Shown in pieces: positions 10,484 to 22,020 of a stretch of 64,000 bases of DNA. Source of the stretch: Lingula anatina (lineage: Eukaryota; Animalia; Brachiopoda). The DNA is taken from assembly GCA_051362555.1 (NCBI GenBank), contig CM120640.1, positions 12,400,001 to 12,464,000 of the forward strand. Reading direction: 5' to 3'. The notes under the pieces were generated by a model. The model saw only the letters and a program-made list of their open reading frames with translations, made no database searches and was not told the origin of the DNA. Positions within the stretch are counted from its first letter, which is position 1. The number at the start of each line of letters is the position of its first letter. Made by a program: the position numbers and the translations under genes.

Positions 10484-13400
10484 TTAAAAACTGTCTATTT
10501 CTGTAAATTCGCTCAATTCCTTCACAACATGGATAGTCTTCAGTTTAGCACTCTTTCTGATCTTGGATGTAATTTCCTCAGGATCCTCTCGACGGACAAG
10601 TGCTTTCTTCTCTGGAGGCTTCATCTTCCATAAGACAACAGGGGACTGAAATCAAAATGCCAGAAAAATAATGAACTTCAACAAGCATATTATGTGTAAC
10701 AATGCCCACTGACATCAGACTAACATTGGAGGCGTTTCATTTTTCTTTGTGATACTTATTATCAAAACTGCCTTGGAACTTTTTTGTAAGGTTCGACATA
10801 CCTATTGCAGTTACTTGCCCGTCACAAGTGATTTTCTTACAAATTTTTTTAATAGTGATTAAATTAAGCAGTTCCTTTTATTATATACAACTGATATACT
10901 TACATTGACACCCTTCTGAGATCGTTGATACTGAAATCAATCAAAGACAGAAGTAAATATAAATATGAAATACTTTGAAAATCATTCAAAATGCATTCAA
11001 AACTTGGGAAATGTACCAGTGCTTTTGGTTTACGCTCGTAACTAATTAAAATGTTTTTTCATGATGTTGCTGTAAAAGAATATATATCAGGCATAACTAT
11101 GCACTACATGTACAGTTACTCAATTACCTTGGTGGAAGCCACATAAGATGCTTTGACAGTCAAGACCACAGCATTCATAAGATTCTTGGCTGCTTGGATC
11201 AGAGAGGTGGCACTGTCAAGCTAGAGAAACAGGTAAAAGGTAAAAATATTGTACACATTTTGTGGCGGACTTCATAAATTACAAGTAGATGAGACATAAA
11301 AAAGTAATTTCTAATCCCACTAATTGCTGGTAATTTTAGCAAATAAATTATTTGTACAAATACAGTCAGTGGGACTTAACTTTAATAGACCCAAGATATT
11401 GACAGTGGACATTTTCCAATCATTGCCTTCCTTGTGAAAAGGGCATTTCTATTATTTTTTAATTTCATCATTTTTTTTTTTTTGGGGGGGGGGGGGGGAG
11501 GGTTGATTGCCTTTTGACAGTAAGGGGGTACTTGCTAGAGAATGTTTCTTCATTCAAATTTTATATGGGCACATATCTAATGCATCTAAATAATTCTTAT
11601 TTTCCTAGTCATTTCATTTTTCCTGTTGACAATACACTGCACATGTTGACCACTGCAAGCATTTTTTTTTTCAGTTGCAAAATTTAGTGCACGCATTGAT
11701 AGATTTTATCAATATTGTACACAACAGCAAGAAAAACACTGAGTGTTAAATAAAAATGTACAACTATGTACAACTTCAATTTTATATAAAGTGCCAAAAT
11801 TCCCGTCAATACAAATCAATGTAACTTTACTGAAACAACAAAAAAATTATAATGAAATTCATAGATGTTGAAAACAAATGATGGCAAAGCTTGCAAAAAA
11901 AGGCATCTAATGACAAAAAGAGATACATCTATGCAGACTTAAGATATCATCTACCAATAAAGATACATATTTGCCTAAACTATATATATATAAACTAAAT
12001 ACTACAACACTTTTGAAAAAAAAACAAGTTCCTATAATCAAAATTAAAATACTACAAGGACAGTGTGCTTAACCATTCATCTGTGTTGGTGGCCATCTAA
12101 CCTGTAAACATTTCTTTTACTTTACAGCACCAAATATCGGGAAGTTATAACAAAATCACGATTTGGTCAGTAATCAAAAATTCTGTTATACCCATAAATC
12201 CACTCCCCTTATTAGTGTTTGTATTACAAGGTTAAAAATCCACCTTAGCATATTCTGTGTATAACAACAACTAGGCAAACAACATCATGTGTCTAGTTGA
12301 GCAATAACCCCAGTTATAACACTGGGACTTGGACATACTATAGTGGGAGGTGCTTAAACTCAAATGCACATAAGAATATTGTGGTGCACTCTACAGAATA
12401 TGTTTCTACATTTCTACAAATTAATATGTCAATGATACAGTGGCATGAAAACAACAATAAGAATGTATTTTTAGCACTATTAATTCAGCACTATTATTTT
12501 ATCAATCAAAACTGTCAACCAAATAAATGAAAGCAAAAAGACTGCTTATTGATATTTTTGATTCTTTACCATGAAGTATTCATGCCCATGTATCCTGACT
12601 TACTATCAGCAGATGTACATGGTAAATAAGATGGGATGGGGTGGGATAGCAGGGAGCTGGTTGGAGGAAGAGGAAGAGGAAGGTGGGGCTTTTATACCTG
12701 CAGTACGTATGCCCAAGTCCCTAGAAAGCAATCTTTATTAATACTACATACCCCGGACACTATGAGCTCTCCACTGATGTTAGTGACATCAGCCTTGACC
12801 TTGCTGGTGATGTTCAACTGATGACAGTACAAGGCAATACGTTGGAGATATGCTATTAAGTCTTTCTTGGAATCAGAAACAGGGCACTAAAATGCAAGAT
12901 ACACACACCTCATGAAGCATGCAACACAAGCCACAACAACAACTATGGATTGTTACAGGAAAACCAGCAACGCAACCAACCACAACAGCAACATCAATGG
13001 CCACTGCATTGCACAGATGGGTGGGTGTTGTTTATTACATACCCCCGTCAATAACATCTCGCCACCCTGGGTGGTGACATCAGCTTTCACTTTGCTTGTG
13101 ATGTTCAATTGATGCGTGAACAGCGTGATCTGCTTCAGATATGACAGCAAATCACGCTTGGAGATTGAATCTGGGCACTGAAAAGTGGATGAGGAACTAG
13201 CATGTTAGTGATATATATGGGGGGCAGGGGACAAGGCACAGCCACCACTCTATAATGACTGTCTACTGTTGGGACTGGAGTGTGTGGGAGGAGCTAAAGG
13301 TCAAATACCATGACCCTACCAGATCATTGTCAACCACCATGCACCTGTAGCTCTCTTAATAACCTGGGGATGCAAAGGTTAAAACCAGGCTATGGATACT

Positions 13401-16400
13401 ATAGTGGTTGATTAGTGCTGGCACCTCCATATCCATGCAGTGGCACCAGCCAGGGACAGGTTAGTTCTTGTATTCATGTACTGTCTCCTCCATGCTACAC
13501 AGCTGTCTGACCACCAGACAGACAACCCAGCAACCACGACGGCTCCCAGTCGTTACCTACCCCTGATAACAGTACTTCCCCACTGTCCAAAGTGATCACA
13601 TCAGACTTCACTTTGCCAGTGATGTTCAACTGATGTGTAAAAAGAGCTATGCTCTTCAAATAAGCTTTTAAATCTTCCTTGGACCTGGAATCTGGACACT
13701 GTAAGTGGAAAATATGCACACTAGTCCTGTATGACTCTAGACTAAAAAGGTGATTACCAAGGGATGATTGGGATACAACAATAATGAATAATGTTAATAT
13801 ACATTGGGAGTGTCTCATTGAAAATACATCATAAGTTTACTATCTGAAAAAACAAATATTAATTAGAAACAGAGTACAATATTTGTCACCGACAAAGAAA
13901 ATATCTTATGCAAAGCAAAAGTTCATATGGAAAAGGTGCCAGATTCATCTTGGTGCTTCTTTTTTGGGCAAAATACTGCAAGAGACCAGAGCATGATAAA
14001 TATTTATACAAAAACAAACAATTAAGTCAATATGTAATTCTTATTCTGTTTGTTTAAGTCTTTTCTGAATAAAATGTGAATTACTTATTATTGATGAATA
14101 AACAAGTTTCTGTTCACATATACTACATCTATATCATAACCAAAATGCTGATTCGAAATCATATCATGACAACACATGCCAGAATCAGCAAGTATAATAC
14201 CTGGTCAGCAATTGTTCTGGCCAGTTTGTCCAGATTAGTTCCAGCTTCTGAGATCTTCTTGGCAGCATTGATGACATCCATAGTGGACTTCAGTGGACCA
14301 CGACCACTGAAAATATATTTTATTATTAAATACAATAAAATGTAAAAAATTATATCATAATCATTCCTGCTGCTTTATTTTGATAAATATCTATGCTGCA
14401 AAAACAACTTTAAGCTGCACTGAAATAGAACAGTATGAGTAAGCTTATAAAAACTTTTTGTGACTGAAACATAAATCATAATGATGAAAATTTTTCCTAT
14501 ATATTATGTTCTTACCGAGTGAAATCAGTCATCTCCATCATGATCATGCACATCTGTTTAGCCAATATGATGATATCATTTCCACTATCATCCCACTTGG
14601 CAATTTCTCTATCCAGCTTTGCCTTCTCCAGGCGGAAGTCTTCCACATGTTGCTGGATTTTCAGCTGTTCCTCAGGAGGCAGTTGTCTCATAAGAGCACG
14701 GTCTGAAGGTTCTCCCATAATGCTGTCAATTCTATCATACTCCTGGTCTGTGTAGTTGCTGTAGCTTGCTATTAAAGGAGATAAAGTACTGTTGTTATCA
14801 ATTTTTCATTAATTGGCACTGATTTAGGAATTAAGCCCTTTCTCAATTACCTATCAAAACTTTCTTTGCCAAAGTCATGCTATTTCTACTATTTTTGTTT
14901 AAGGCAATCCACCAACTATTTGACCCCATGCAACCTGCCTCTGTAAGAAACATCACTTACCCTTACTACGGGTCTCTGTCTCTGTATCATCATACTGATC
15001 TTCCTCAACATCAGATTCCTCGATTTCATCTGGTCCCTACATACAAAATGTTGCACATGTTTAACTCTTTAACAGAAAACATTTTGTCACAAAGACAAAT
15101 TTGTCAAAAAACCTTTCAGTGGTCAATACTTGTTTGTAATATATTACTTATCAGAATTTAATGATGCCAAAATAATTTATTTTTGAAAAAAATCTTCAAG
15201 TGGATCTGTTTCCTGTTACAAAATTTATATAAGCACATTTCTCAGGTTGCCTCAGAAGCACTAACCCTATTCATCAGCACAGCTCTGCGTATGTCACGGA
15301 CACCATCATATACAAGACGTGCAGCTTCAATGAACTCATTCTCATCAATTTCCCGTGGTGGATTGGAGGAGAGAGCATCCACTGCATCTTCTACTCTGGC
15401 AGCAAAGTTTGGCATCACTGAAACAGACGGGAATAATCAAATTTTGGGAATTCAAATTTAAAGGTTTTGGGCAAATGTGTGGGAGAGGATTTAATACTTG
15501 CTCATCTTGAAATTCCTCAAAAATAATATGCTGGTTGTGAAATAGTTTAAATCTATATATAACATTAAATTCACTTATAAACAGTATACTGACTCAGAAC
15601 TGAAAGAACACCTAAATACATCTGAAATTCAAGTTTTATAATTGCAGATTCAGGCTTTTGGTATAACATTTGAACAACGTGGCATTAGTTTTGTACCTTG
15701 ATCTCTGAGCATCACCACAGCCTCCATCACTCTCTCAGTGTAAATGCCAGGTTCATAGTTATCCATCTCTGCAGTGACCACATTGCAGACACGAGCAGAG
15801 CGCCCTCTGATGGCACCAGCTGTGCGATCCAGTGTATCAGCATCACTCTCTTGTAGTGCCAAGACACACTTGTTCACATCTTCCAGTATGTGGCTCTCTG
15901 GATGACAAATGAAAGATTATGTCAACATTGCACTAGGAGGGAGTCATGTTTCCCCTTGTAATGGTCTGAACCTGAGAACCATATTGACCATAGGAGAGTA
16001 ATCATACATTAGTCTAAAGTAAGACATTAATTTTCTTTCAAAATACTTCAGGTTTTTTAAATTGCATAATAAATTGAAACAAATGAAATAAAATTAAAAG
16101 GGTTTTTCTTCTTCTTTTCAATACCCATTACTCACATCTTTTTTCACTTAAACAACAAAAAGAAGACATCAGTCCAGCCTTAAATTTACCTGAGACAGCC
16201 AAGAAGTCATCAATGGTTGTGATATCATCCACAGCTTCTGTCAATACACGGACCTGTTTCTCCCAGGCATCCTTGAACACATCCATGTTCTCCATGGCAA
16301 CCTTGGAGCGTGGTCTAGCTGCCAGAATGCGGGCAGCATTGATAACCTGCGAATATGCCAATAATGATGCAACAATATTGATACTTCATAAAATTATCAT

Positions 16401-21700: not shown

Positions 21701-22020
21701 TAATGCACACCAGAAACAGTATATCTTTACTGTTTTTCAGTCAAATTTAATAACAATACTTGTGATGTTTTGTGAATTCACATACTGTGTGTTATCATAC
21801 AAATGTATAACCAATCTAGTCAATCAAAATTCACAAGAAACATTTTTCATACTCTTGCCTACACTATAACAACTCAATTTTTAATAAGTTTAACACTTCC
21901 AGTTACCTGTGTAACTAACGGTTCTAATGTTTTCTCCACAGATTTTGTACGAATTTCCAGATTCTTTGGGTCCCACTTAATCTGGATGGACCCTGTTGGA
22001 GAAGTTGTCAGGGTTGTCAT
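10484..22020 (-). CDS. CTNNA: Alpha-catenin, complete CDS. Exons 5'->3': 22020-21907, 21699-21510, 21254-21088, 20905-20786, 20558-20469, 20109-19936, 19689-19486, 17352-17272, 16875-16630, 16346-16190, 15897-15697, 15417-15266, 15036-14961, 14768-14516, 14306-14201, [one of 13698-13561 / 13177-13043 / 12886-12752], 11220-11128, 10930-10904, 10645-10484
   Basis: Phase-consistent GT-AG exons give MTTLTTSPTGSIQIKWDPKNLEIRTKSVEKTLEPLVTQVTTLVN...FADDPCSSMKRGAMVRAARALLSAVTRLLILADMVDV...RPSLEERLESIISGAALMADSSCTRDERRERIVQECNAVRQALQDLLSEYM...LRKAVVDHVSDSFLETNVPLLVLIEAAK...KWDDSGNDIIILAKQMCMIMMEMTDFTRGRGPLK...LDSATSLIQAAKNLMNAVVLTVKASYVASTKY...WKMKPPEKKALVRRE, which is unmistakably alpha-catenin. Confidence 0.97.
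12752..12886 (-). CDS. CTNNA: Alpha-catenin alternative exon 16C (135 nt, phase 0-0; closest to canonical): CPVSDSKKDLIAYLQRIALYCHQLNITSKVKADVTNISGELIVSG
   Basis: Acceptor cttgcattttAG, donor GGG|GTATGT. Retains the canonical AYLQRIALYCHQLNI.SKVKA.V...GELIVSG of metazoan alpha-catenins. Confidence 0.92.
13043..13177 (-). CDS. CTNNA: Alpha-catenin alternative exon 16B (135 nt, phase 0-0): CPDSISKRDLLSYLKQITLFTHQLNITSKVKADVTTQGGEMLLTG
   Basis: Branch-like CACTAAC, acceptor catccacttttcAG, donor GGG|GTATGT, open frame. Confidence 0.87.
13561..13698 (-). CDS. CTNNA: Alpha-catenin alternative exon 16A (138 nt, phase 0-0): CPDSRSKEDLKAYLKSIALFTHQLNITGKVKSDVITLDSGEVLLSG
   Basis: Acceptor ttccacttacAG, donor GGG|GTAGGT, open frame, paralogous to 16B and 16C. 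Confidence 0.85.
18751..18788. repeat. (AAAT)n microsatellite
   Basis: Tandem TAAA units in alpha-catenin intron 7. Confidence 0.9.
19189..19227 (-). CDS. Candidate 39-nt cassette exon in alpha-catenin intron 7 (CGKRSKPSYFREQ)
   Basis: ctgcAG acceptor, CAG|GTAAAA donor, frame-preserving phase 0-0, TGCATG 8 nt after the donor. Confidence 0.35.

Follow-up and report, generated by a model that had tools for sequence, protein, structure and literature searches.

Three mutually exclusive exons encode alternative versions of the actin-binding helix H4 in alpha-catenin of the brachiopod Lingula anatina

The alpha-catenin gene of the brachiopod Lingula anatina, which lies within the 64-kb stretch of genomic DNA from contig CM120640.1 analysed here (the window), carries three tandem paralogous exons that encode alternative versions of helix H4 of the actin-binding domain (ABD) and of the hairpin that follows it. 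This segment contacts actin, refolds in the force-strengthened state and is near-invariant from insects to mammals. Junction reads for each exon, the existing RefSeq isoforms and the signature of purifying selection bear out the original prediction, made from the sequence of the window, that a mutually exclusive cassette generates three ABD variants from one gene. We consider it almost certain that these are real, expressed and conserved mutually exclusive exons located at the catch-bond helix of alpha-catenin.

The coding region spans positions 22020 to 10487 on the minus strand (RefSeq XP_013405992-995), and XP_013405994.1, annotated as catenin alpha-2 isoform X3, matches it letter for letter over 20 window exons. 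The same L. anatina record is recovered at 100% identity by a protein search with exon B. On the minus strand, alternative exons A (13561..13698; 138 nt, 46 aa, covering H4 and the H4-H5 loop with one additional residue), B (13043..13177; 135 nt, 45 aa) and C (12752..12886; 135 nt, 45 aa), the last being the canonical and dominant version, are enclosed by two constitutive exons that were placed by exon mapping and RNA junctions. The upstream exon (14201..14306) encodes H3 and provides the common donor at 14201, and the downstream exon (11128..11220) encodes H5 and provides the common acceptor at 11220. As predicted, all three copies are open and in phase 0-0 with AG before and GT after each, and every splice site in the cluster is of the GT-AG type.

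The strong nucleotide divergence noted earlier was also verified, as the copies share 65-68% of their nucleotides and 28-32 of 45 amino acids and yet contain no stops or frameshifts. In tblastn searches within the window each copy finds the others at E values of approximately 1e-15 to 1e-17, with the next match at E > 0.5. Neither tblastn nor a hidden Markov model scan (97, 80 and 75 bits for the three copies; next score -3) revealed a fourth copy in the 64 kb. The three exons are already present as isoforms in RefSeq automatic annotation, with one copy in each: A in isoforms X1 and X4, B in X3 and C in X2. Exon A is carried by records P0124, P0005 and P0188. The last of these (XP_013419772.1) is a second Lingula record from a separate scaffold of 250,738 bases, which combines the same C-terminal region and an intact exon A with an unrelated N-terminus, and is likely an uncollapsed haplotype or a partial duplicate.

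Splicing was assessed in eight of nine Lingula RNA runs, 6-30% of each being sampled. Both mate directions were summed, and one molecule may therefore count twice; a splice joint was reported only if seen in at least three reads per run. All six junctions that the original prediction had put forward for mapping have reads. Exon C accounts for 483 of the 520 junction reads (214 upstream from 14201 to 12886 and 269 downstream from 12752 to 11220, over the eight runs), exon A for 28 (16 for 14201-13698 and 12 for 13561-11220) and exon B for nine (three for 14201-13177 and six for 13043-11220, every one from run X6). Overall inclusion is approximately 5% for A and 2% for B, with maxima in single runs of 18% and 15%, respectively. 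Thus the outcome in which transcripts contain only exon C, named in advance as fatal to the prediction, did not occur.

Joints connecting A to B, A to C or B to C, and joints that skip all three exons, were not reported in any of the eight runs at the three-read threshold. In alphaN-catenin II an insert is placed at the H4-H5 junction, and it had been proposed that co-inclusion in Lingula would similarly add 45-46 aa; this proposal is unsupported. Exons A and B splice straight to 11220, past C, about as frequently as they are entered from 14201, which argues against co-inclusion. The few A and B reads, and the fact that co-inclusion would preserve the frame, could be taken as signs of pseudoexons, of assembly artefacts or of cassettes included together with C. 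Such explanations are very improbable given the direct exits to 11220, the missing joining joints, and synonymous sites that are saturated while the frames stay intact: when neutral evolution was simulated to 0.5 substitutions per site, 28 or more identical residues were obtained in 0.1% of runs. Moreover, exon A is intact also in P0188 on another scaffold.

Use of A and B varies between samples. Exon B is present in 9 of 60 junction reads in run X6 and in 0 of 177 in three other runs of the same batch (Fisher p 3e-6, or 2e-4 by distinct starts), although the remaining four-run batch may hold one or two exon B reads that fell below the reporting threshold. In study P3, 15 of 166 starts represent exon A, as against 1 of 100 in study P1 (p 0.007). 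A difference at the level of tissues is a candidate only.

The arrangement resembles the mutually exclusive exon clusters catalogued by Hatje et al. (PMC5740500), in which tandem paralogous exons of similar length and identical frame are included singly. The Lingula exons are similar, comparable in length (138/135/135 nt, phase 0-0) and frame-preserving, and bridging junction reads come from every one of them. Reads joining one alternative exon to another are absent at the three-read threshold, the single-read criterion of that study being stricter than is applicable here. Exons A and B replace C, and do not have the character of an additional exon added to a constitutive domain. Here, by contrast, it is the actin-binding helix of a mechanosensor that is swapped, and the main text of the catalogue, as distinct from its supplements, contains no mention of CTNNA or catenin.

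Comparisons between copies yield proportions of synonymous differences (pS) of 0.68-0.81, which is saturated, and of nonsynonymous differences (pN) of 0.18-0.23. The per-exon selection check that had been called for, run as between-copy pN/pS, gives 0.23-0.34 (bootstrap upper limits 0.41-0.58; all 95% intervals below 0.6), indicative of purifying selection. The combination of saturated synonymous sites and low pN shows A and B to be old and subject to purifying selection. Since the comparison of A with B leaves out C and still gives a pS of 0.78 against a pN of 0.18, both minor exons are constrained. Differences seen in RNA reads are in keeping with these values, as four of four reported single-nucleotide polymorphisms (SNPs) within the three exons and nine of nine in the flanking exons are synonymous. 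In study P3, the 502-nt intron at 13699-14200 has at least 20 differences and exon A has no nonsynonymous ones, versus approximately four expected (P ~0.016, a rough estimate). The divergence of this intron from the window in P3 (runs X7-X9) is at least 4%, which makes the animals of that study either a separate population or a cryptic species labelled Lingula anatina.

Exon C aligns to residues 767-811 of human alphaE-catenin (6UPV), which form H4 and the H4-H5 loop or hairpin, and the numbering of this protein is used below. The prediction that all three copies keep the F-actin contact residues L785, I792 and V796 (exon positions 19, 26 and 30) holds in this alignment. Indeed, P768, D775, L776, L785, I792, V796, K797 and V800, which are actin contacts or latch residues (PMC6269467, PMC7588230, PMC7588232), are retained throughout. 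Exons A and B have in common Q781K, Y786F, C787T, N802T, I808L and V809L; R782 is replaced by S in A and Q in B, and L807 by V in A and M in B. Exon A further carries S794G, A798S and one additional loop residue, and exon B carries A778S. The residues that A and B have in common (K781, F786, T787, T802, L808 and L809) suggest that divergence preceded the second duplication. An ancestral phase 0-0 exon would first have been duplicated, one copy would have diverged, and the diverged copy would then have given rise to A and B.

Relative to the consensus of 95 distinct H4 segments, A deviates at 16 positions, B at 17 and C at 5, and 7 of the 95 collected segments deviate at 15 or more. L785 is present in all 95 without having been required by the pattern used to select them, whereas Q789, V796, K797 and G811 were required and their invariance is built in; L807 is L in 87 of 95. 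The structural modelling that had been recommended agrees with a preserved fold: in AlphaFold 2 (AF2) models H4 is helical in both A (H225-254) and B (H794-820, with a low-confidence loop), and the domain containing A fits 4K1O with a template modelling (TM) score of 0.86. All three versions have the attributes of the PF01044 actin-binding domain, namely a five-helix bundle with L785, I792, V796, K797 and V800.

Published roles exist for L785, I792 and V796 and for hairpin 799-810, within which L807 takes part in an ABD dimer that bundles actin (PMC6269467). On actin, residues 795-801 convert from hairpin to helix and V809 packs against the force-sensing helix H0 (PMC7588230). A778, Y779 and Y786 are directed at the actin D-loop, and visible binding was lost when a triple change was made there (PMC7588232). 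An ideal helical wheel would place R782 on the same actin-facing stripe, and a literature search on this residue found no paper; in the same projection C787T, common to A and B, is oriented away from the actin-facing side. All variants keep L785, I792, V796 and K797 but alter D-loop-facing and hairpin residues, and are therefore likely to retune actin binding.

Judging from the substitutions, we favor the view that exon choice probably tunes actin binding by alpha-catenin, with A and B likely retuning rather than abolishing it. The changes on the D-loop-facing stripe (R782 to S or Q, Y786F, and A778S in B) and those in hairpin 799-810 (L807 to V or M, V809L, and the residue inserted in A) would affect the weak-to-strong transition, the packing of H0 and the dimerisation of the ABD. 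The most likely outcome would be weaker basal binding in certain tissues or at certain stages.

Alternatively, the swap could act on a contact that does not involve actin, for instance afadin binding, ABD-ABD dimerisation or autoinhibition by the head or middle domain. Afadin W1514 occupies a groove formed by H3 and H4, and afadin D1517 pairs with K795 (PMC11482809), but A and B both retain K795. ABD dimers form through the hairpin via L807 (PMC6269467), a residue that is altered in A, in B and in an oyster variant described below despite its strong conservation, and the common C787T faces away from actin. R782 and Y786, however, are on the actin-facing side, and an effect directed primarily at other partners appears improbable.

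A comparable pair of exons was found in oysters. A search with a profile of A and B (best 150 of 280 matches) uncovered a stand-alone variant exon, P0301, whose cluster includes the read-through open reading frames (ORFs) P0339 and P0341, in each of which a canonical copy is followed, after a 23-codon spacer, by a variant copy. They correspond to RefSeq isoforms of Crassostrea angulata and Magallana gigas (Pacific oyster), which carry either the variant (P0353/P0354) or the canonical version (P0361/P0363) and are otherwise identical save for other small cassettes. The oyster variant parallels Lingula exon A, with R782E, Y786F, A798S, L807I and a 46th, loop residue. Isoform and ORF records give the pair a putative 69-nt intron, which would fit steric exclusion. 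In Crassostrea virginica the variant is absent among three listed isoforms, all of which are canonical.

The variant exon comes first in Lingula and the canonical exon comes first in oyster, and A is closer to the oyster canonical exon (29/45 identities) than to the oyster variant (25/45); we therefore lean toward independent duplications. Phylogenetic analysis, with 45 columns and long branches, groups A with B (support 94/90) and leaves the placement of the oyster variant beside them unsupported (28/0). In topology tests on the same columns, the oyster pair as a clade was not rejected (approximately unbiased test, p-AU 0.24) and a clade of A, B and C was weakly rejected (p-AU 0.03). Beyond Lingula, this comparable pair is the sole duplication among the invertebrate loci examined. 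Because a protein search with exon B (best 120 of 1390 matches) missed the oyster variant, failure to see a second copy elsewhere carries little weight, and other taxa may carry an H4 variant as well.

Several other records display unusual forms of this segment. Centipede-type alpha-catenins (P0035, P0067 and L074:642-776 versus P0014) have two H4-H5 hairpin versions with near-identical flanks, which could reflect either divergence between lineages or a further alternative exon. In Nucella lapillus P0352, the first ~20 residues of the H4 exon are repeated before a low-complexity stretch and then a full copy, either through partial duplication or as a gene-model artefact. P0235 is a divergent alpha-catenin fragment with B-like K781, T787, G804, M807 and L809 whose flanks are divergent too, and is probably a separate gene that converged on these residues. 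Two Mizuhopecten isoforms (P0132 and P0134) have four residues inserted precisely at the junction preceding the H4 exon, and in loci L078:507-716 and L079:2784-2993 this exon is interrupted by an additional intron.

The two introns internal to the Lingula cluster stand out by composition. The A-B intron (13178..13560, minus strand; 383 nt), a candidate regulatory region, has a GC content of 0.49 and two UGCAUG motifs, and the B-C intron (12887..13042, minus strand; 156 nt) has a GC content of 0.44 and one UGCAUG, compared with GC contents of 0.22-0.34 in the other 19 introns of the gene. This enrichment hints at constrained elements. RNA folding of the two introns is no better than that of shuffled sequences (z 0.19 and -1.07), and no convincing inverted repeat was found. 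The sole YTRAY motif of the B-C intron is 49 nt away from the B donor, but AGs occur at -24 and -58, and a distant branch point is suggested at most. Among the mechanisms that can enforce exclusivity, namely a sterically constrained branch point, competing RNA pairing, frameshift and U2/U12 mismatch, frameshift is ruled out, as all exon lengths are multiples of three, and the splice sites are all GT-AG.

Some of these data would also fit mutual exclusion without any functional difference. In that case A and B would be old duplicates that stay intact only because their products must fold and bind actin, with their differences reflecting tolerated drift. Inclusion is low (5% and 2%), the tested actin-contact residues are all retained, many changes are conservative or present in single-copy catenins, and the long branches (0.53-0.84) leading to A, to B and to the oyster variant are consistent with relaxed constraint. 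However, a redundant exon would easily be lost over a time long enough to saturate synonymous sites, and equivalence does not account for the sample-specific inclusion, the oyster changes at the same positions (782, 786, 798, 807 and loop length) or internal introns that are GC-rich unlike the other 19. We regard equivalence as unlikely, though it deserves serious consideration.

Further points weigh against a switch that tunes actin binding. Both A and B remain minor forms in each of the runs, the runs carry no tissue labels, contrasts between samples could reflect population or library effects, and joints with fewer than three reads went unreported. Other, apparently single-copy alpha-catenins contain F786 (8 of 95), T787 (6 of 95) and K781 (6 of 95), and these substitutions may be near-neutral. 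None of the 80 metagenome loci contains a second H4 copy; in 17 of them introns flank the exon and both neighboring exons are included (13 distinct exon sequences and 7 peptides, mostly from one group). Octopus, scallop, clam, mussel and cuttlefish have a single H4 version among their listed isoforms, and most animals manage with one H4 exon. Finally, the best candidate duplex between the A-B and B-C introns across B has an energy of -32.5 kcal/mol at one register and of -29.2 in the grid that was tested, but 8 of 120 shuffles did as well and it lacks significance.

Parallels to the proposed tuning by exon choice exist in other systems. In FGFR IIIb/IIIc, exon choice likewise swaps a binding surface, and the FGFR IgIII domain has been described as a hotspot at which splicing evolved recurrently among bilaterians (PMC5703972). 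Vertebrate alphaE-, alphaN- and alphaT-catenin have the same domain, exon boundaries and contact residues as the Lingula protein (PMC6269467, PMC7588230, PMC7588232), and a vertebrate-type locus (L075) has AG and GT at the same H4-exon positions, but in Lingula diversity comes from splicing one gene. Within this segment A and B diverge from C at 16-17 of 45 residues, compared with a single difference in 45 between alphaE and alphaN. Alternative splicing also affects the C-terminal region in alphaN-catenin I/II, where form II has a 48-aa insertion (PMC5505122), whereas the Lingula exons replace one another. In vinculin and metavinculin, of the same superfamily, splicing changes the actin-binding five-helix bundle and alters bundling. 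However, metavinculin has a 68-aa insert that displaces H1 (PMC7588232), and Lingula exchanges H4 itself together with the hairpin.

The belief that this cluster had not been described stands insofar as no paper was found that notes or interprets the exons, although subscription papers and supplements, including those of exon catalogues, may list it; it falls short in that RefSeq already models all three. The cluster represents an established type of splicing at a new site, and its surprise is limited by the familiarity of that type and by the RefSeq isoforms, while the Pacific oyster pair is new here. The parallel pair suggests a useful switch rather than a one-off, and oyster tissue RNA data are plentiful. 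Tentatively, the H4 exon might be a recurrent or very old splicing switch of Lophotrochozoa, in which variants without R782 and with Y786F, A798S and a longer hairpin reset the cadherin-catenin catch bond in specific tissues, exon choice doing the job of the alphaE/N/T paralogues. If so, the natural variants would mark tunable residues of the catch bond. Naturally selected H4 versions on an otherwise identical protein are ready reagents for dissecting the residues that set affinity, force threshold and bundling.

Additional splicing variation occurs elsewhere in the gene. An apparent alternative acceptor at 10642/10645 is really a synonymous SNP adjoining the junction and not a splice variant. 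A 13-aa cassette exon (19227-19189, minus strand) is skipped in RefSeq isoform X4 and lies in a loop between two middle-domain helices in the AF2 model. The intron downstream of it (19188-17353; 1836 nt) contains nine GCAUG motifs, three of them UGCAUG, suggesting Rbfox-type control. Cassettes of 12-23 aa are found at the same position in octopus, Mya, oyster and scallop isoforms, and this exon would appear to be a second splicing switch of alpha-catenin, more widely conserved than the H4 swap.

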